A stretch of 64,000 bases of DNA from Eledone cirrhosa (GCA_964016885.1 OZ024754.1:6200001-6264000), one strand, 5' to 3'. Shown: positions 42,401 to 63,944, counted from the first letter of the stretch. A program made the numbers and translations. Notes: generated from the letters alone by a model not told the origin.

Positions 42401-45400
42401 CTGGGTGAACTGAGTGCATTTTATCATGGCACCAGCACTACTTCCTTACAGATGCTTCTAAAGTCTGAATGGAATGAGAATAGTGAAAACAAAATCTTAT
42501 ACTTACTTTTTTGAGTAGGGTTACTTTGTGACTGTTGTATGGTACATGGTGTAGAGGAGGAGGGCTGCTGTTGTGGGGGAGGAGGTGGTTGGGATGGAGA
42601 TGCACCAAAGCTTATGTTGATATTTGGCAATAAGGCCCGCAAGCCATCTTGTAGATCTTTCAGATGAAAGCCATCGTGCTGATAGAAAGGAAGAAAAATA
42701 ATATTAATAATAACATTAACCCTTTCATTATTATATGGTAGAGAATTGGACATGTTTTGAAGCACATAGATACGGCCTTTTACATTCTGAGTTCAAATCC
42801 TGCCACGGTTAACTTTTCCTTTCATCCTTATGAGGTCGATGAAATAAAGTACCAGTAATACACTGGAGTCGGTAAAATAAAGTAGTAAGGTTGATTTAAT
42901 CGACTTTCCCCTACCCCAAAAATTCTTGGCCTTGTACCTAGATGTTGTAAGATTTTAATTTAAATAGTAACCCTTTAAAATGGGTGGTTTTGTTTCATAG
43001 AACTAGAGGCAATTTGGTATAAAATTGTTTAACAGGGGAGACAACCAGGAGAAAGGTAATCACTATTAATGTAAATTGGTACACCATTTGATTTAAATGT
43101 AATAAAATCTCGTATAAACTACATTTGCTTTTAATTTAATTTTATTTAACCCTTTAGCATTTACATTTCTATATATACTATTATTTTTTCGTGGTAAAGG
43201 CTTTATCTCAATCTATGAGGTTTTAATGTTATTTATTTTGAGAACAATAGCTTAACATCAGTATGAGTGGCTAGTTACAGCCGGTTTTAACAGAAAGCAA
43301 ATGTAGTTTATATGAAATTTTATTGCATTTCAGATGGCATTTATAACACAACAAAATGTTCTTGTATACAATTATGTTGGAACCCTTTAAAATGATTAAA
43401 ACAACAGCTTTGTTTCATAGAAACAGGTACAGCTTCAAGTGGTTTCATATAAAAGAGGGTTAAAGTAGGATGGTTGACTTACTTGTGTACTGTTTTGCAT
43501 GAGCTGCTCTTTACTCTGGAGATGCATTTCTGGTAAGACTGCATAAGAATTCTGCACAGGCTGTTGAGGTAATTTTGGTTGGTTGTAAATATATTCCACC
43601 ACTTTGCCACTATTGAATTCTACAAAAAGAAAACAAGGGTTTGTTTGTTCAATTACAAACACAGCAGATTGTCATAATACATCAACATTATATATTGTAG
43701 ATAGAATTAAATCAACATACCATATATAACCAAATATAAACTGAGAAATATGACCAAAAAACAAAAAACAAATGGTAAAAAGGGAGGTTGGCATATATAC
43801 GCTATCTAAACAATGTGTTGATTAGCTAAATGATGAGGGTTATTCTTACTCTATAACCAACAGACTGTCCCATATTACTGCTAAACACACTATCTCATAT
43901 ATCTGCGAAACACTATCCCATATTTCTACTAAACACTATCATCCCATATTTCTACTAAACACACTGTCCCATATTTCTGCTAAACACACCATCCCATATT
44001 CCTGTTAAACACACCATCCCATATTCCTGTTAAACACACTGTCCCATATTTCTACTAAACACACTGTCCCATATTTCTGCTAAACACACCATCCCATATT
44101 CCTGTTAAACACACCATCCCATATTCCTGTTAAACACACCATCCCATATTTCTACTAAACACACTGTCCCATATTTCTGCTAAACACACCATCCCATATT
44201 CCTGTTAAACCCACTGTCCCATATTTCTACTAAACACACCATCCCATATTTCTGCTAAACACACCATCCCATATTCCTGTTAAACACACTGTCCCATATT
44301 TCTACTAAACACACTGTCCCATATTTCTACTAAACACACTGTCCCATATTTCTACTAAACACACCGTCCCATATTTCTGCTAAACACACAGTCCCATATT
44401 CCTGCTAAACACACCATCCCATATTCCTGTTAAACACACTGTCCCATATTTTTACTAAACACACCGTCCCATATTTCTGCGAAACACACTGTCCCATATT
44501 TCTGCGAAACACACTGTCCCATATTCCTACTATAACAAAGAACTAACAAACAGTTTAATAACAAAGCCAGTGAAGACACCTTACCTTGTCGGAACATCTG
44601 TTGATGTAACTGTTGCTGCTGTTGTTGTTGCTGCTGTTGCTGCTGCTGCTGCTGTTGTTGTTGGTGTTGCTGCTGCTGCTGTTGTTGCTGCTGCTGCTGT
44701 TGGTGATGTTGCTGCTTTATTTGCTGCTGCAACTGTGGACTTAAATGACTTATAGAGAACCCTGGTGGTATGTTTGGAGTGTGGATTGGGGGTCGCATAT
44801 TATTTCTATAAGCTTGGTGTGCAATATTCAAAGTCTGCTGCTGAGGTTGTTGCTGTGGCGGTGTTGGTGGGTGTTGTTGTGGTTGTGGTGGTTGTGGGAG
44901 GTGGTGATGTGGGTGGTGGTGGTGGTGGTGCAGGTATTTAGGGTTTTCCCTGATATCTCTACTGCCATTCTCCTTCTCCATGAGATCAGCTAATGCTTTT
45001 GAAGATTCATTCCAAGGATCGAAACCTAAAAATACAAGAAATATAGTGAGGGACTGATAGACTGGTGTCCAGTGTTTGACAATGTAGGGTTTCAGATGAT
45101 TGTATAGTCTGGCTGAGCATGTGACAACCTCTAGTCTTGGTGCCACAATAAAATGCATCCAGTACACCATGTAAAATGTTAGTGTTGGTGCCACAATAAA
45201 ATGCACCTGGTACATACTGTAAAGTGGTAGTGTTGGTGCCATGAAAAACGCACTCAAGTAATTCAGCTGTAGAAACCATGCCATATATGAGATCGTTCTG
45301 AACTGTCTGTTCTCAAACAGTGACAAGCTGTCCAACTTACACCAGTGTGGAAAGCAGATGTAAAATGACAAAGAAATCACAATTAAAAGACAAAACTTGC

Positions 45401-48400
45401 AGGATGGGGCAACTAGACATTCTATTGTCTACAAAGCCAGCTTTTGTCAAATTCCAAGACCCATCTAGCCACAAAAATATGCACCTACCAAGCACTCATT
45501 TGCATCATCGAGCTATGTGGTTGTTGAGATGCAGCTTATAAGAATGGTGGATTTATGCAAGGTGGAAGTATTTGATTGTGTTTGCCTTTGACAAATCCTC
45601 AATGTTCATACATTGAAGTACATGAATAACTCTGCCGTTGCTGGACTGATTCCTTCAACAACTACTCAAAATGCACTTCAGTTGCTATGGCCAGGATCCT
45701 AGCTTAGCCTGTTAAAAAAGGTTAAAGTCTGCTTTAACATCAGCCTAGTACTTATCCTGGTTTCACCAGCATTAAGCAACTGAGAGTACCAGACTTCTCC
45801 CTGGACAGAATGCCAGTCCATCACAGAGTTAACTCCCAGCTACTGCTGGTACACATTTTCAGCTGAGTATACTGGATCAATGAGAAATGAAGTGTTTTGT
45901 TCAAATTCACATGCTAACCAGTTCAGAAATTGAACCCACAACATTATGATCATGAATCAAACACCCTTACCATTAGGCTACATCCCTTTCCATGAGTCAC
46001 ATTCATTTGTGATGTGGTAGTGCCAGAACCTTTTGTACAATGGTGAAATGGCAACGTGGATAGCTAGATTAATACAATCAAGTTAGATATTGAACTATTT
46101 ATCTCGTCTTCACATAATATATGGTGTTTACCAGTTGAATCAGGACTGATTACAGCTTCTGTTCATTATCTTGTGGATTGAATGGTTGGAGCTGACTCAA
46201 CCCATCCCAGGTGAACATATACGCGAGTACTTAATGACAGTTGTATGAGACTAGTTTGCAAAATCATTAAAGAAACCACCAAATATCTTCTTACCAAAAT
46301 TATCTTCTTGATAATGAACAAAATCATCAAAAAAAAACAAAACAAACAAGAGACATAAAAAATAAACACCAAATATCTTACCAAGATCATCATCTTGATA
46401 ATCAACACTCTTTGGTGCAAATCCAAACGCTGCTTGCCAATCAGTTGCACTTGTTACTGGAATTGTGTCTGGGATTTCCAGAGAAGGTAACGACTCTGGG
46501 ATTCCTGTTCAATAAATAGAACATGTTATAGAAATAGAATCTCAAATATTTCATCTTTATTGTTTTATATCCATTACTACACAGTAAGTAGCATTTGTGG
46601 GATAATATATATCACCAAAAGTTAATGACTGGGGGACCTATATTATCCAATATAACTAGAACTTAGGGAGGGACTATATGTACAGTTAAATAGGGAGAAA
46701 ACCAGGAATGAAAGACAACATCCCAGATCTCATTTGCTCACCGAGTGAGTTTGAAATCATCATATCAGAGCAAAGAAACAATGTTTCCATTAGTCTTTCC
46801 AATTGTTGATTCTATCCCCTATTTGAAACTCCTGGTAGAAGGAGTAATATGAAATAAAGCATCTTGCTGGTTTTTGGGTGAGTTGGTATCAAAATGGTTA
46901 AAATTTGAACTCATAATCACCTGCTCATTAAGTAATTCATTAGCTTCAACTCATTAAGACACTGTGCCTCATTATTTCTAGTTCAATAACTTGGTTAAAA
47001 GTAGAAACAACGATAGCAGGATTGATATACAGAATATTTAGGTCAAGCAGAAGGATGAAAGGCAAAGTTGACCTCAGTATGATTTGAACTCACAACACAA
47101 AGATCCAGAACAAATACTGCAGAACATTTTATCTGACGCTCCAACTATTGAGCCAATCATTCTTGCTTAACAAAGGTTTCTAATTTAACCCTTTAGCATT
47201 TAAACTGGCCATATCCGGCCAGAATTTTCTCACCTCTTTCTGTTCGAACCAGCAACCAGCTGTAACTGGCTTCTCATGATGTTACGGTATTTTTCTCAAA
47301 ATAAATAATATCAAAATCTCATATTCAATATTATGTGAGGTAAAGCCTTTACCATGAAAATACAATAATAAATATAGAGTGATGTAAATGCTAAAGGGTT
47401 AAGTAAGTGTTCAGCAGTTAAAGAGGAGGCAGAGGTCATTAAATCAACCCCAGTACCTTACTGGTATACATTCAGTATTGGTAGAGGGTCGGACCATGCT
47501 TTCCAGCATAGTTACGTCCCTTTACGACCTGAGTTCAAATCCCGCCAAGGTTGGCTTTGCCTTTCATCCTTACGGGGTCGATAAAATAAAGTACCAGTAA
47601 TGCACTGGGTAAATGCTAGCCTTGTACCTAAAGTAGAAACAATTATTTTATCAGCCTCAGAAGGATGAAAAGCAAAGTTGACCTTGGTGGGATTTGAACT
47701 CAGAACGTAAAGGTCTGTAACTACATGTCACAAAGCATTTTGTCTGTTCTAATGATTCTGACAACCCACCATCCAATAATAATAAAAAGAAAATGTCTCA
47801 CCCGTAGAATGCTGTATTGTGGAATTTTTTGTTGTCTCCCTCTCACTGCCACTAGAGAAGCCATTACCACTGAAAAATGAAAGACTGTCTGCATTCCTTT
47901 TTTCCAGCACTTGTCGTGATACCTGGTTTATGCCCATAAATGTTAAAGATGGATTCATTGCGGTAGCAAATGCATCATTCACGTGGACTGCTGAAGTTGG
48001 TGATGGTGCTGAGTAGGACGACGATGTTGAAACCCGGATATTTGGGGAATCAATTGAACCATTACTGTAATTTTCTACCCTGTATAATACAACATAAACC
48101 ATTACTGTAATTTTCTACCCTGTATAATACAATATAAACCATTACTGTAATTTTCTACCCTGTATAATACAACAAACCATTACTGTAATTTTCTACCCTG
48201 TATAATACAACATAAACCATTACTGTAATTTTCTACCCTGTATAATACAACATAAACCATTACTGTAATTTTCTACCCTGTATAATACAACAAACCATTA
48301 CTGTAATTTTCTACCCTGTATAATACAACATAAACCATTACTGTAATTTTCTACCCTGTATAATACAACAAACCATTACTGTAATTTTCTACCCTGTATA

Positions 48401-51400
48401 ATACAACATAAACCATTACTGTAATTTTCTACTCTCTATAATAGAACATAAACCATTACTGTAATTTTCTACTCTCTATAATACAATATAAACCATTACT
48501 GTAATTTTCTACCCTGCATAATACAACATAAACCATTACTGTAATTTTCTACTCTGTATAATACAACATAAACCATTACTGTAATTTTCTACTCTCTATA
48601 ATAGAACATAAACCATTACTGTAATTTTCTACCCTGTATAATACAACATAAACCATTACTGTAATTTTCTACTCTCTATAATAGAACATAAACCATTACT
48701 GTAATTTTCTACTCTCTATAATACAATATAAACCATTACTGTAATTTTCTACCCTGTATAATACAATATAAACCATTACTGTAATTTTCTACCCTGTATA
48801 ATACAATATAAACCATTACTGTAATTTTCTACTCTCTATAATAGAACATAAACCATTACTGTAATTTTCTACTCTCTATAATAGAACATAAACCATTACT
48901 GTAATTTTCTACTCTCTATAATAGAACATAAACCATTACTGTAATTTTCTACTCTCTATAATAGAACATAAACCATTACTGTAATTTTCTACTCTCTATA
49001 ATAGAACATAAACCATTACTGTAATTTTCTACTCTCTATAATACAATATAAACCATTACTGTAATTTTCTACTCTGTATAATACAATATAAACCATTACT
49101 GTAATTTTCTACTCTGTATAATACAACCAACCATTACTGTAATTTTATACTCTGTACAATACAACAGCAACATAAACCAATTACTGTAATTTTCTAAAAC
49201 AAAGAAACCTGAAATAGGTCATACACTTTATGAATGAGTTTTAGTTTAGTATTGCTGGCATTTTTATTATAATTTACGATTTTTCCTAGATTTGCCCCCA
49301 AATAAGTACTCAACCTGCATTTCTCACCTGCTCAACTATATGGAATTACAACTAGGCTGTGTCTTTTAGTGGCTCCCTCGCATGTGAACCATAACTGAAA
49401 TTCTCTACCCTGTACACTAGAACATTTTCTAAAAGAAACTCGACTTGTAGTTCAGTATTGCAGGCATTTCTTTTATTTTTAATTTATGGTTTTTCCTAAT
49501 AAATTCTTGACCTCCATTTTTCATCTACTAAATTATATAAAACTAGAGTTAGGTTGTGTCTTTTAGGGGCTCCCTCTAATTGCAATGGAATGGCTCTCCA
49601 ATCAGTCAAGAGAATTAAAAACTAAACCAAGACTTACATTGTTAATTTATCAGGATCTCGTTTGTCTCTGAGACATTTGTTCTGTTTGGTTGGTGTACTT
49701 GGTCTGTGAGTATGATGTCTGGTTGTGTTGGGCACTTTGTTACCGTTGAGGAGTCTCTCAGCACTGGTTGTCTTGCTACCAACTGGTGTAACATTACTCT
49801 CCACTATTGTGGTTCCAACAGTGGTCGCACTGCTTGTACCAACACCACTGTTTAGAACAGGCCACACTTCTTTGCTTGCATTGAGTGCTGCTTGTTGCTG
49901 ACTGGCTGCCAAACCAGATCCCACCACCAGAGAAGAGGAGGTGGAAGAAGCTGAAGAGGAAGAGGAGGAGGAGGAGGAGGAGGAAGAAGAGGAGGACCCT
50001 GTTGAAAGGAACTGCAGTTCTGTTGTTTGCTGAAGCAGCGTTGACTGTTGTGGTGGAGATGACTGTTCAACTGTGACAGGTGACGACGATTTTTTCCTAC
50101 TTGAAAATAAAAAAATACATGCATTAGCATCATCACTTCCACACTGTTCTTCAAACATTAGAATGGGCTGGATAGGTATGTAATTACAGAACTTAGATTT
50201 TTCAGAGATTAGACCACATATCAACATGATTTACTTACCTGGCCCTAAAAACAAATATAATGACATGTTTCAAAAGCTTTATTTCAGAGAATTTATTCTC
50301 ATCAAAGAAAATACAGGGTAAACATAAAATATTCCCCTGACTATAAAATATCATATCTCAGATACTATTTGAGATTTTACTTTTTCATTGTTTTAATTTA
50401 TAAATTTCAAGTTTAACCCTTTAATGTTCAAACCGGCCAAAATTCTCTACCTTTTTCTGTTGAAACTGGCTGTAACTGGTCACTCAAACTGATGTTAAGG
50501 TATTGTTCGTAAAATAAATACTTTCAAAATCTCAGATTCGATATTATGTGAGGTAAAGCCTTTACCATGAAAGTATAATAGTATATATAGAGTAATATGA
50601 ATGCTAAAGGGTTAAAAGTTTTTCTGAACAGTTTAAAGTTTTCAGTAATGAAATGACATTTATGAAACAAAAAAAACTCTGTGTTTTGTGCTCAGCCTAT
50701 ATTGCAACAGAAGAGTTACTGTGGAAACTGTGTCAATACCTAGATTACAAAGATGGATAAACCTTGTAACAGACTGACATCTACTCTCGATAACATATTA
50801 AGCTGGGATAAACTCCCACATGATGGATTTTTCGGCTACCATGTCTTGAAAACACTTTTAAAGATTGATAATTCAACAACTGGCCTTTTAAGGAGTTAGC
50901 TTTACGAACCCATGACAGGGTTTATGTTCATTGTATGGTACCTTTTCAGGTAATGTCTTACGGCTGGATGATCTTCCTGGCACAGTACAAGCCCTTTTGG
51001 TCACTTCATATGACATACAGTCTAGGTATGGCATGGTCCCATAACTCCTGACAACAGTCGTAGGAACACTATTGACAAACGTCGTTTCTTGGGCATTTTA
51101 AGCCTGGTGGAGTCCACCCCCCCCCCCCCCACCCCACCCCACCCCACCCAGGCCTGAGTACAGAAGATTTCTTCCAGAGAAAAATAACGAGAGAGAGGAA
51201 ATGAGACATACAGTTTTCTTATTCTAAATTGGATATACACACACTTTAGAAGATTGAAGATATACCCGGTGTTAAAAAGTAACGGCTGCTTACCTTGAAG
51301 TTATAGTTTTATTGGATGTTACATGGTTATTTGCTAAATTTTGGGAATTCATAAACTGTTCTAACAATTTCTGTTCATATTCTTGATGTTTACTGAAAAT

Positions 51401-61652: not shown

Positions 61653-63944
61653 TAGATACACATACACTGTCTATATATTATCACTGTCTATTTTCCATGC
61701 TTGTATAGGTTAAAAAGGTCACCATGTTTTGAGGTTAAAGTGGTAACATAATCCCGTCCTACTTGTAAGCTCAGATTTTTGGCTCGGTTTCTAAGGATGG
61801 ATGTCCTTTCTAATGCTAACCACTTTACAGAGTGGGCTGGATGCATTTTATTGTGGCACCAGCACTATCACTTTACAGAGTGGGCTGGGTGCATTTTATC
61901 GTGGCACCAGCACTATCACTTTACAGAGTGGGCTGGGTGCATTTTATTGTGGCACCAGCACTATCACTTTACAGAGTGGGCTGGGTGCATTTTATCGTGG
62001 CACCAGCACTACCACTTTACAGAGTGGACTGGATGCATTTTATTGTGGCACCAGCACTATCACTTTACAGAGTGGGCTAGGTGCATTTTATTGTGGCACC
62101 AGCACTATCACTTTACAGAGTGGGCTGGATGCATTTTATCGTGGCACCAGCACTATCACTTTACACAGTGGGCTGGGTGCATTTTATTGTGGCACCAGCA
62201 CTATCACTTTACAGAGTGGGCTGGGTGCATTTTATTGTGACACCAGCACTACCACTTTACAGAGTGGACTGGATGCATTTTATTGTGGCACCAGCACTAC
62301 CACTTTACAGAGTGGACTGGGTGCATTTTATCATGGCACCAACATAAATAAAACAGATTGGTTACAGATGTAAGATATCTTGAATCATTTATAACTTTGG
62401 CCGGGATTTTTACAGCCGGATGTCCTTCCTAACACTAACTACATTTACAGTGTGGAACTGGATAGCACCATTATGAGGAGGGACAGGCCAGTTGGCTGTG
62501 CCGTACCTTTACCCTGCTTACAGTGGAACCAGTTTGGGAGCCACAACCATATTTACCGACAAATGAAAATGTAACCTGATTATATAGGGAAATATAAATA
62601 TGTCAACTGCTACAGTGAGAAGTGTTCGAATGATGATAGCTGTGGCATGGAGGATACGCAGATGTTGGTCCAGAAAAAAAAAAAAAAAAGGACCAACCGT
62701 ACCTAACTCATTCACCTATTTGGAACATGCACACACACACACACACAAAACATGACTGATACGAAAAGGAAATAGCTAATGATGGGAAATTTCCAAAATA
62801 AAACAAGAGTTGTTCAATAATGGTAATAAAAGGCAGCAAATTGCCAGAATTGTTAGAAATGCTGGACTAAATGCTTTGAAGCATTTGTTCTGACTGAGCA
62901 CCATGAGTTCAAATCTTGCCTAGGTCAACTTTGCCTTTCATCTTTTCAGTGTTGATAAATAAAGAACCGGGTCCAGGGATAATGGTCTGGCGGAATTATT
63001 AAAATGTCAAATGGGATGCCTTGCAGTATCTGTTCCAACACTGTATGTTCTCAGTTCAAATCCTGTCTCCTAACAACAGGAAAGTGGTGAGGCTGCTGCC
63101 AGGAACAGCAGCCAACAGATATTACCAGAAATGGAAACGACTGATGGAAACAGTTTCCATGGTCCGATCTAAAGATTGGAATTTACCTTTCTTAATAGTT
63201 AATTCTTAAATTTCTTAAATGTCTCCAAGAAAATAAATATTCAATAAACACAAAAACATTGAACGACCAAATAACACAAATATAATAATCATCACAGAAA
63301 CTTTCTTTTTCTGGTTTACAATTTTTTTCTATTTCAAAGGGATAGTTCTTATGAAACAGAATATTTACATAGATATTAGCTACTCTCACCATCACTACAT
63401 ACCCCTTCATAAAGGAACACAAGGAAGATTTAAACACTGGACCACGAGTCTTCACATCCTCGTAACACAAGGAAGATTTAACCACTGGGCCACGAGTCTT
63501 CACATCCTCATAACACAAGGAAGATTTAACAACTGGGCCATGAGACTTCACATCCTTGTAACACAAGGGAGATTTAAACACTGGGCCATGAGACTTCACA
63601 TCCTTGTAACACAAGGGAGATTTAAACACTGGGCCATGAGACTTCACATCCTCGTAACACAAGGGAGATTTAAACACTGGGCCATGAGACTTCACATCCT
63701 CGTAACACAAGGGAGATTTAAACACTGGGCCATGAGACTTCACATCCTTGTAACACAAGGAAGATTTAACCACTGGGCCATGAGACTTCACACCCTCATA
63801 AAGGAACCCAAGGACCAGGTTAACCACTGGGCCATGTGCCTTCACATCCTCATAACACAAGCAAGATTTACATACCTGATAACCACATGTACAAGGGAAG
63901 AAATTTTTATCGTCTATTTCCAGAGGATCCATACATAGTGGACA
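39469..63944 (-). CDS. CNOT4: CCR4-NOT complex subunit 4 (E3 ubiquitin ligase); 17 coding exons in window, 5' end outside window
   Basis: Manually spliced exons all have GT..AG boundaries and consistent phases (2589 nt including stop). Product has a C4C4 RING, coiled coil, RRM, C3H zinc finger, DWQAAFGF/DDLGFDP motif, QDGLRALLPNINI, HWMKSIQQLTE and NPPPGF, all recognisable metazoan NOT4 blocks. Confidence 0.97.
39670..39880 (+). mobile_element. Second tRNA-derived SINE family (B); minus-strand copy at ~45750-45982
   Basis: Box A TGGCCTAGTGG, box B GGTTCGATTCC; body CCCTGTGATAGACTACCATCCTGTCCAGGGG...TACTCTCAGTCGCTTCA resembles, from memory, a conserved Deu/Nin-type SINE core. Confidence 0.75.
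40158..40290 (-). mobile_element. 5'-truncated SINE family A with 16-bp TSD (CNOT4 intron)
   Basis: TACATAAAATTATAAT at 40146-40161 and 40294-40309. Confidence 0.92.
40724..40822 (-). CDS. CNOT4: CNOT4 exon (AGWVPQTHNPPPGFHTQIRPPTQTTEPHKMTE)
   Basis: TTGTAG| and |GTAAGC, 99 nt, phase 1/1; conserved NPPPGF..RPP. Confidence 0.9.
41653..41769 (-). CDS. CNOT4: CNOT4 exon (NFSHMPDNPHWMKSIQQLTEFD...)
   Basis: TTGCAG| and |GTCAGT, 117 nt, phase 1/1. Confidence 0.88.
42507..42678 (-). CDS. CNOT4: CNOT4 exon (HDGFHLKDLQDGLRALLPNINISFG...)
   Basis: TATCAG| and |GTAAGT, 172 nt; conserved QDGLRALLPNINI. Confidence 0.94.
42735..42942 (+). mobile_element. SINE family A (diverged)
   Basis: GAGTTCAAATCC...TTTCATCCTTATGAGGTCGAT...GGCCTTGTACCTA. 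Confidence 0.8.
43483..43619 (-). CDS. CNOT4: CNOT4 exon (EFNSGKVVEYIYNQPKLPQQ...STQ)
   Basis: TTGTAG| and |GTAAGT, 137 nt; phase 1/0 bridges its neighbours. Confidence 0.85.
43865..44530. repeat. 25-bp minisatellite, ~26 copies (intronic)
   Basis: Unit CCCATATTTCTACTAAACACACTGT. Confidence 0.96.
44585..45025 (-). CDS. CNOT4: CNOT4 exon: CAF40-binding motif (GFDPWNESSKALADLMEKE), His/Pro/Gln-rich tract, PPGF, polyQ
   Basis: TTTTAG| and |GTAAGG, 441 nt, phase 1/1. Confidence 0.93.
45135..45370 (+). mobile_element. RTE 3'-end fragment; similar fragments at ~34815, 41035, 42370, 51630, 52915, 55140-55440, 57040-57275, 59350, 60560, 61190-61410, 61680-61820, 62400
   Basis: Share GGTGCCAC..AAAATGCAC, GGAAGGGCATCCAGCTGTAGAAA or CCCATGC..GC.TGGAA..GGACGTTAAA with the RTE 3' UTR. 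Confidence 0.75.
46382..46504 (-). CDS. CNOT4: CNOT4 exon (IPESLPSLEIPDTIPVTSATDWQAAFGFAPKSVDYQDDDL)
   Basis: GAACAG| and |GTAAGA, 123 nt, phase 1/1; conserved DWQAAFGF. Confidence 0.94.
47189..47398. mobile_element. TTAA-specific (piggyBac-type) MITE, 210 bp
   Basis: TTAA|CCCTTTAGCATTTA...TAAATGCTAAAGGG|TTAA. Confidence 0.88.
47430..47765. mobile_element. Plus-strand SINE A (47474-47645) inserted into an older minus-strand SINE A
   Basis: The host SINE is split at ACTGGTA...TTTATC by an opposite-orientation copy. Confidence 0.82.
47802..48079 (-). CDS. CNOT4: CNOT4 exon (VENYSNGSIDSPNIR...ADSLSFFSGNGFS...HST)
   Basis: ATACAG| and |GTGAGA, 278 nt; phase 2/1 fits both neighbours. Confidence 0.88.
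48057..49196. repeat. 40-bp (some 38-bp) minisatellite, ~28 copies, spanning a CNOT4 intron/exon junction
   Basis: Unit AACCATTACTGTAATTTTCTACCCTGTATAATACAACATA; the first copy overlaps exon 47802-48079. Confidence 0.97.
49638..50096 (-). CDS. CNOT4: CNOT4 exon, Ser/Thr-rich low-complexity region with poly-Ser
   Basis: Open frame 49634..50227, tandem acceptor CAAG/TAG, donor |GTAAGT, phase 2/2. Confidence 0.88.
50417..50611. mobile_element. TTAA MITE copy
   Basis: TTAA|CCCTTTAATG...ATGCTAAAGGG|TTAA, same internal sequence. Confidence 0.85.
51294..51392 (-). CDS. CNOT4: CNOT4 exon (KHQEYEQKLLEQFMNSQ...)
   Basis: TTTCAG| and |GTAAGC, 99 nt, phase 2/2. Confidence 0.94.
51797..51864 (-). CDS. 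CNOT4: CNOT4 exon, C3H finger end (DCMYLHELGEEAASFTKEEMQMG)
   Basis: TTACAG| and |GTAAGT, 68 nt, phase 0/2. Confidence 0.96.
52460..52624 (-). CDS. CNOT4: CNOT4 exon, RRM C-half and start of C3H finger (GPSASAYVTY...LGTTKYCSHFLKGAQCPKS)
   Basis: TTGCAG| and |GTAAGT, 165 nt. Confidence 0.97.
53729..53876 (-). CDS. CNOT4: CNOT4 exon, RRM N-half (VVQKNLVFVVGLSQRLAEPDVLKKHEYFGKFGKIHKVVINQSTSYAGAQ)
   Basis: TTTCAG| and |GTATGT, 148 nt, phase 2/0. Confidence 0.97.
55837..56057. mobile_element. TTAA MITE copy (opposite orientation); partial copies at ~43146-43300, 58800-58970, 60327-60500
   Basis: TTAA|CCCTTTAGCATTTA...TAAATGCTGAAGGG|TTAA. Confidence 0.85.
56492..56581 (-). CDS. CNOT4: CNOT4 exon, coiled coil (LHRIKKEKRQKDLQRKQKAAENRKHLANVR)
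   Basis: CTGTAG| and |GTAGGT, 90 nt, phase 2/2. Confidence 0.95.
56745..56930 (-). mobile_element. SINE family A (diverged); further fragments at ~47050-47160, 56160-56260, 59103-59216, 62830-62960
   Basis: GGCACAAG...ACTGGTACTTTATT...GGGATTTGAACTCAG. Confidence 0.75.
57493..57539 (-). CDS. CNOT4: CNOT4 exon (QYPEDPAEFKPLTEDE)
   Basis: TTTTAG| and |GTAAGT, 47 nt, phase 0/2. Confidence 0.95.
58640..58705 (-). CDS. CNOT4: CNOT4 exon, RING second half (ICRFCWHRIRTDENGLCPACRK)
   Basis: TTACAG| and |GTATGT, 66 nt; not in the ORF track. Confidence 0.97.
61821..62341 (-). repeat. 48-bp minisatellite (~11 copies) derived from the RTE 3' UTR
   Basis: Reverse complement GGTGCCACAATAAAATGCACCCAGCCCACTCTGTAAAGTG matches RTE 21327-21368. 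Confidence 0.93.
63416..63870. repeat. 48-bp minisatellite (~9 copies) abutting the RING exon donor
   Basis: Unit ACACAAGGGAGATTTAAACACTGGGCCATGAGACTTCACATCCTCGTA. Confidence 0.95.
63876..63944 (-). CDS. CNOT4: CNOT4 exon, RING first half (CPLCMDPLEIDDKNFFPCTCGYQ)
   Basis: TTTCAG| acceptor, |GTATGT donor, 69 nt, phase 0/0. Confidence 0.97.

Follow-up and report, generated by a model that had tools for sequence, protein, structure and literature searches.

The window analysed here, a 64,000-nucleotide stretch of Eledone cirrhosa DNA, carries a 40-bp minisatellite that reproduces one intron-exon boundary of its host gene. This gene, read from the minus strand, is CNOT4 judging by its domains and closest relatives, in agreement with the initial annotation: zf-RING_4 matched above the cut-off on two exons, RRM_1 matched one exon at 20.1 bits, just under the 20.7 cut-off, and the RRM exon is closest to bivalve proteins that carry the name CCR4-NOT subunit 4 (91-93% identity), hits that point to a mollusc host. 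The 16-exon model runs from 63944 to 40724 and has 852 codons open through the 49638/48079 junction, the start codon lying outside the model.

The boundary concerned joins an upstream exon of 462 nt (49638..50099, minus strand; donor 49638, phase 2), an intron of 1558 nt (48080..49637, minus strand) containing the array and an older duplication, and an internal exon of 278 nt (47802..48079, minus strand; acceptor 48080/48079, donor 47802/47801), which is supported by spliced contigs and the open frame. The reading frame suggests the pairing of donor 49638 with 48079. The intron downstream of the 278-nt exon is 1297 nt long. A homolog search with the 92-aa exon gave no match at E <= 0.01, and none was obtained when this exon and the upstream one were compared by local BLAST with 120 CNOT4 relatives; the two exons are fast-evolving, so protein conservation is unable to fix the junction.

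Structure and reality of the array

The array (48057..49166, minus strand) was detected by Tandem Repeats Finder with a period of 40, 28.0 copies and 95% matches, and a motif scan of the minus strand found 28 acceptor-like units, the first at 49151 and the last at 48079, spaced by 40 bp except for four spacings of 38 bp. The initial annotation had claimed about 28 tandem copies of a 3' splice site, each made of the last 17 nt of the intron and the first 23 nt of the CNOT4 exon; the two methods agree with that number, and reading the units gave the same composition. One unit is the authentic acceptor, at which the exon begins (48079), and unique exon sequence follows this last unit only; the remaining 27 units are upstream pseudo-acceptors. 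The array is AT-rich (32% GC).

The description of the upstream units as some 27 near-identical acceptors was correct in number but not in near-identity. CAG is kept in 16 of the 27 upstream copies and GAG is found in 11, the junction types (slash marking the splice position) being CAG/G in 12, CAG/A in 4 and GAG/A in 11. Identity to the real site across -17..+23 extends to five copies, and across -40..+23 to three. In the variant map, the nine units nearest to the exon are all CAG/G, the GAG units are clustered in blocks, and degenerate 5' units lie at 49151 and 49193.

Tandem arrays are frequently mis-sized, and an assembly artefact or a gross over-expansion in the assembly would be an alternative explanation, to which we give virtually no chance. 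In the DNA-like run X17, which has the same organism code as the RNA-like run X20 described below and is possibly the very sample assembled, a single-copy contig with depth 14 spans 47694-48086, stopping 30 bases into the repeat. Over the first upstream unit (48098-48136), the depths in this run summed to 706 vs about 14 for single-copy sequence, that is, approximately 50-fold, which fits tens of copies. The internal variants are ordered along the array and also speak against an artefact.

Acceptor use and consequences of decoy splicing

The RNA-like runs examined were 3 of the 17 listed. These runs, X20, X1, and X8, were treated as RNA since their contigs skip the 1297-nt intron; none of them is recorded as RNA. 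X20 is from the same organism (0 differences) and is the sole RNA-like run from an organism known to carry the array, and X1 and X8 are from two relatives, covered as spliced contigs. One contig in each run covers exactly 47801-48079, skipping or abutting the 1297-nt intron; 344 bases of the X20 contig run on beyond the stretch. The word share of X20 (0.22) is in line with the fraction of the query that is exonic (0.227). Entry into the exon at 48079 was the main contig in all three runs. The depth of the bin 48036-48097 is exactly 44/62 of the exon depth in each of them (31.1, 26.1, and 84.9), demonstrating that none of their contigs enters the intron, and the neighbouring copy (48098-48136) has depth 0 in X20, X1, and X8, in contigs from which rare variants drop out. 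A decoy isoform was absent from the contigs of 3/3 RNA-like runs, contigs that miss rare forms and from which nonsense-mediated decay (NMD) hides decoy products. The main isoform uses 48079, and a small leak to the decoys is compatible with the contigs. The predicted bypass of the competing copies by the spliceosome is seen in these data.

The strength of the decoys was compared using a crude matrix built from the 15 other acceptors of CNOT4, whose leave-one-out range (-5.6 to 9.8) lets it rank sites roughly. The real site scored 4.9, the 12 CAG/G decoys 4.9-5.6 and the GAG copies about 0; on the intron-side signals, as far as this crude matrix measures them, about a dozen decoys equal the real site. 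The GAG copies had been regarded as poor acceptors, and they are weaker, but the AG signal is not removed from them: a new TAG, with a score of 2.4 or 0.3 vs 4.9 for the real site, arises two bases upstream.

Decoy use was expected to produce a premature stop, and this holds for 106 of 106 array AGs, each followed by a stop no more than 55 nt past the junction, with six junctions after it. Among the 147 AGs tested from about 49600 to 48062, the frame stays open only from 48079 and 48064. The second of these is an in-frame AG 15 nt inside the exon with a score of -6.5, which fits its not serving as the main site. Stops well upstream of later junctions make transcripts NMD targets, and by this junction rule the transcripts spliced to array AGs, with stops upstream of six junctions, would be such targets. 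This is the arrangement of unproductive splicing, where the alternative site gives a stop well upstream of later junctions, and any leak to the decoys would be removed by NMD.

Taken with the origin of the unit described below, these results make it probable, in our judgement, that the array is a minisatellite that grew locally from the CNOT4 boundary, of which the last copy alone is used in the transcripts found, and that it is tolerated, with a predicted effect close to neutral.

Regulation of CNOT4 output by copy number, as proposed in the initial annotation, would require a sizeable share of decoy-spliced transcripts, destroyed by NMD and growing with the array length, whether selected or not. 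Such tuning has some attraction: the 12 CAG/G decoys score like the real acceptor, all lead to premature stops, NMD would hide the products from contigs, and the human 6-16 and CBS VNTRs are described as using two pseudo-sites in the available part of the source (PMC1557585). We nevertheless consider it unlikely, as no decoy contig was found in 3/3 RNA-like runs (X20 alone being from a known array carrier), the amphioxus arrays known as mirages give no aberrant mRNA according to the accessible passages (PMC3087553, PMC3902484), and arrays are common enough in this genome to strike splice sites by chance. The proposed regulation is left without support from these runs, whose contigs are blind to rare or NMD-degraded forms. 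Were decoy use to increase with the number of copies, the array would count as an acceptor-side VNTR that influences gene dosage via NMD.

Recursive splicing, with the intron removed stepwise through the units, had been suggested as well. The acceptors are serial and a donor-like GT lies one base past each CAG/G, but no unit has AG/GT, re-splicing from the nearby GT leaves one extra base and shifts the frame, and the intron is just 1558 nt long. The known recursive sites are mostly in very long introns. AG/GT is absent from the array (0 occurrences), and the four AGGT of the intron (49511, 49327, 49314, and 49208) are all 5' of it. This mode of splicing did not stand up to these observations and is extremely unlikely here.

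Selection of the exon-nearest copy

Since three decoys do not differ from the real site anywhere in -40..+23, whatever decides between them is expected downstream, in the unique exon and its donor (47801). The exon would be recognised as a unit from this downstream donor, with the nearest strong acceptor winning (exon definition). Where introns are longer than about 250 nt, preference goes to the splice sites with the shortest distance across the exon, according to the available passages of a study of human data in which competing 5' sites were tested (PMC9225289). By analogy, this proximity rule may apply to the mollusc gene, where both flanking introns exceed 1.2 kb and 487 nt separate the upstream donor from the first array copy. 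The real exon measures 278 nt, compared with 318 nt or more if a decoy were used. A 300-nt exon cap as the sole selector was rejected, CNOT4 having other long exons of 441 and 462 nt. The locus is a natural test case, in which the match of three decoys to the real acceptor over this whole interval gives a clean argument for invertebrate exon definition.

The branch-like motifs of the authentic acceptor are at -29 and -23, both exon-derived, and at -16, intron-derived. The first two are predicted within that portion of the penultimate unit which derives from the exon (48097..48119, minus strand), in line with the earlier proposal that the preceding unit supplies such motifs. From its sequence, the live acceptor probably branches in a copy of its own exon.

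Each unit carries two 11-nt near-palindromes. An array of 6 units folds at -80.8 kcal/mol vs -45.7 +/- 11.6 when the units are shuffled (z -3.0, 2/300 as low), and a second folding test of the array gave z -2.76. In 16 other arrays (32 strand tests), no z was below -1.74; this control used 12 of the 13 sampled-genome arrays, the 144-bp array being omitted. The model places about 76% of the array in base pairs. The fold-back beyond that of shuffled units is not required by plain drift.

The near-palindromes and a fold-back stronger than in shuffled units and in the 16 other arrays suggest that the array pre-mRNA could fold into long imperfect hairpins hiding most decoys, with the structure protecting splicing beyond exon definition alone. 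We find this very unlikely. The authentic acceptor is equally paired, the unpaired probability of its CAG being 0.00-0.01 and that of -12..-1 being 0.12-0.16 in the models, as paired as the decoys, and equilibrium folding fails to single out 48079; arrays lacking such folding are tolerated elsewhere, as reported in the parts available of the amphioxus papers (PMC3087553, PMC3902484). Masking by hairpins as the selector was rejected on these models, which predict the real site to be no more exposed than the decoys. Instead, being self-complementary may have favoured the expansion of this seed at the DNA level.

A wider proposal joins several of these features: a self-complementary mirage would have captured the branch point that an essential exon uses, its hairpins (possible A-to-I editing substrates) and copy number together would set a measurable NMD-coupled leak, and the CNOT4 dosage would vary with the allele length. 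We give this combination a slim chance, and retain the tolerated, nearly neutral minisatellite as the preferred reading.

Origin of the array and comparison with known boundary repeats

A search of the own genome (3.0 Gb) with 141 bp, giving a lower bound, returned at least 11 matches, and 11 of 11 were inside the CNOT4 array; among the own-genome matches found, the unit is tied to the CNOT4 locus alone. X1 and X8 each differ at 7 of 279 bases, and at least 6 of these 7 lie beyond the first 23 nt. Conservation of the exon start in the two relatives suggests that the array was most simply copied from it. The minisatellite would have grown locally after being copied from the CNOT4 intron-exon boundary.

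The same intron holds an older duplication in two blocks, 49580-49380 and 49379-49120 (about 200 and 260 bp), which are 77% identical over 193 aligned columns, and the degenerate copy that the initial annotation had placed in an approximately 200-bp duplication was confirmed there. The first block (49380..49580, minus strand) contains an older degenerate copy of the intron end with 25 nt of the exon start and a pseudo-acceptor at 49409 (score -2.8). The second block (49152..49379, minus strand) ends in a partial unit without its own acceptor, joined at an 8-bp direct repeat. This repeat is present in both the intron end and the exon start, and at the array head the intron sequence turns into exon-type sequence at it; the first acceptor there looks as if deleted. 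The array may have been born by slippage or unequal exchange, given the 8-bp repeat on either side of the boundary and the one earlier duplication of that boundary.

The intact CAG/G state of the nine nearest units and the blocks of GAG units are a better fit to homogenisation spreading from the constrained end than to selection against the closest competitors. The latter was rejected, the intact copies being those nearest to the exon.

Minisatellite arrays are frequent in this genome, with 13 per 190 kb of sampled genome (19 stretches of 10 kb at fixed offsets, not random), 5 in the window, and 4 in the CNOT4 introns. Assuming 150,000-250,000 acceptors, 460-770 acceptor-spanning seeds per genome are expected by chance, as an order of magnitude only.

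The arrangement has already been described, as 'mirages' in amphioxus and as 'exon stuttering' in chicken, and the array mirrors the human F7 VNTR on the acceptor side. In the literature searched, no acceptor-side VNTR case was found, and a narrow search, with most subscription papers beyond reach, found no octopus papers on such arrays. The locus adds one more boundary-spanning minisatellite and extends mirages to a mollusc.

The available passages on the amphioxus mirages (PMC3087553, PMC3902484) describe arrays in the globin BflGb6, Adh3, troponin C, and PGBD5 genes that leave regular splicing intact and give no aberrant mRNA. As in these, the tandem units in CNOT4 consist of the 3' end of an intron plus the following exon's 5' part, spanning the boundary of their own host intron and exon, whose start is fixed by the RNA contigs. 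An AG is found in many, not all, of the units, here as CAG in 16/27 and GAG in 11/27. The origin is local, by the own-genome matches (at least 11, with 11/11 in the array) and the exon start conserved in the two relatives, and normal splicing is undisturbed, use of the authentic site being the main outcome in 3/3 RNA-like runs, in contigs where minor forms are invisible. The inner units are homogenised and the boundary units are more diverged, and by inspection the variant blocks and the degenerate 5' units (49151 and 49193) point to concerted evolution in CNOT4. Length variation among haplotypes, individuals or cells is a further mark of such arrays; the DNA contigs listed here come from one sample (S15). 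The sizes differ, with 28 x 40 bp in CNOT4 vs 3-6 x 150-160 bp in BflGb6 and units of 10-72 bp in Adh3, as far as the accessible text gives them; the CNOT4 array is also distinct in its mollusc host and its strong predicted fold-back.

Exon stuttering is described for the chicken dot chromosomes, with exon-edge copies in 236 chicken introns, according to the passages available (Hron et al. 2026, PMC12954441). There, as in CNOT4, local expansion copies the exon edge into the adjoining intron, and the introns of the gene hold unrelated arrays (four in CNOT4). The CNOT4 array is AT-rich (32% GC), whereas the chicken arrays are GC-rich, and splice acceptors are absent from the chicken passages available.

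In human, donor-side boundary VNTRs are described for F7 IVS7 (37 bp), 6-16, CBS intron 13, LMNB2, and PDGF; of these five, three are silent, and 6-16 and CBS use two pseudo-sites, according to the part of the source available (PMC1557585). Both in these VNTRs and in CNOT4, the end unit spans the exon-intron boundary, the pseudo-sites are identical, and the exon-nearest site is used. The CNOT4 array is on the acceptor side, unlike the human donor-side cases, and pseudo-site use in 6-16 and CBS contrasts with none here in contigs, within what the available source text covers. A leak to decoys has its precedent in these donor-side 6-16 and CBS cases, as presented in the same passages (PMC1557585).

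Possible alternative acceptors in CNOT4

We detected a second CAG at 48064 on the minus strand, 15 nt into the CNOT4 exon 47802-48079, and it is the only AG besides the acceptor at 48079 that keeps the frame. Judging from the reading frame, splicing to 48064 would lead to the loss of 5 codons from CNOT4. This acceptor was scored as poor (-6.5) by a crude matrix built from CNOT4's own acceptors, and the exon cover by the RNA-like contigs extends through 48079, beyond 48064. Candidate tandem acceptors with 3 nt spacing (50099 and 50096, minus strand) were found at the start of the 462-nt CNOT4 exon, with AAG first and TAG second, both in-frame.

Possible cassette in the older duplicated block

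A CAG immediately followed by a good donor motif is present at 49327 (minus strand) inside the older duplicated block. Together with the degenerate pseudo-acceptor at 49409, this donor motif would bound a hypothetical 82-nt cassette (49409/49327, minus strand) that contains an in-frame stop.

Repeats in CNOT4 introns and elsewhere

Other CNOT4 introns carry minisatellites of 48 bp (63416-63870, 9.4 copies; its first base lies 6 nt downstream of the donor 63876, which it resembles only faintly), 25 bp (43859-44537, 27 copies, starting 47 nt after the donor 44585) and 48 bp (61821-62341, 11 copies). The last resembles a dispersed repeat, which recurs at 45132-45241 and in two other stretches, L011 and L021. 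The CNOT4 exon 44585-45025 (minus strand) codes for poly-His and long poly-Gln runs.

Elsewhere, the window contains two very long AT-dinucleotide-like tracts, of 8.2 kb (21580-29829) and 2.1 kb (15835-17905), and a 75-bp minisatellite (10456-12151; 22.6 copies, 97%), the end of which is immediately adjoined by a GTT tract. A 44-bp satellite occupies the entire 10-kb genome sample L015:1-10000 (G000:C5:5000001-5010000).
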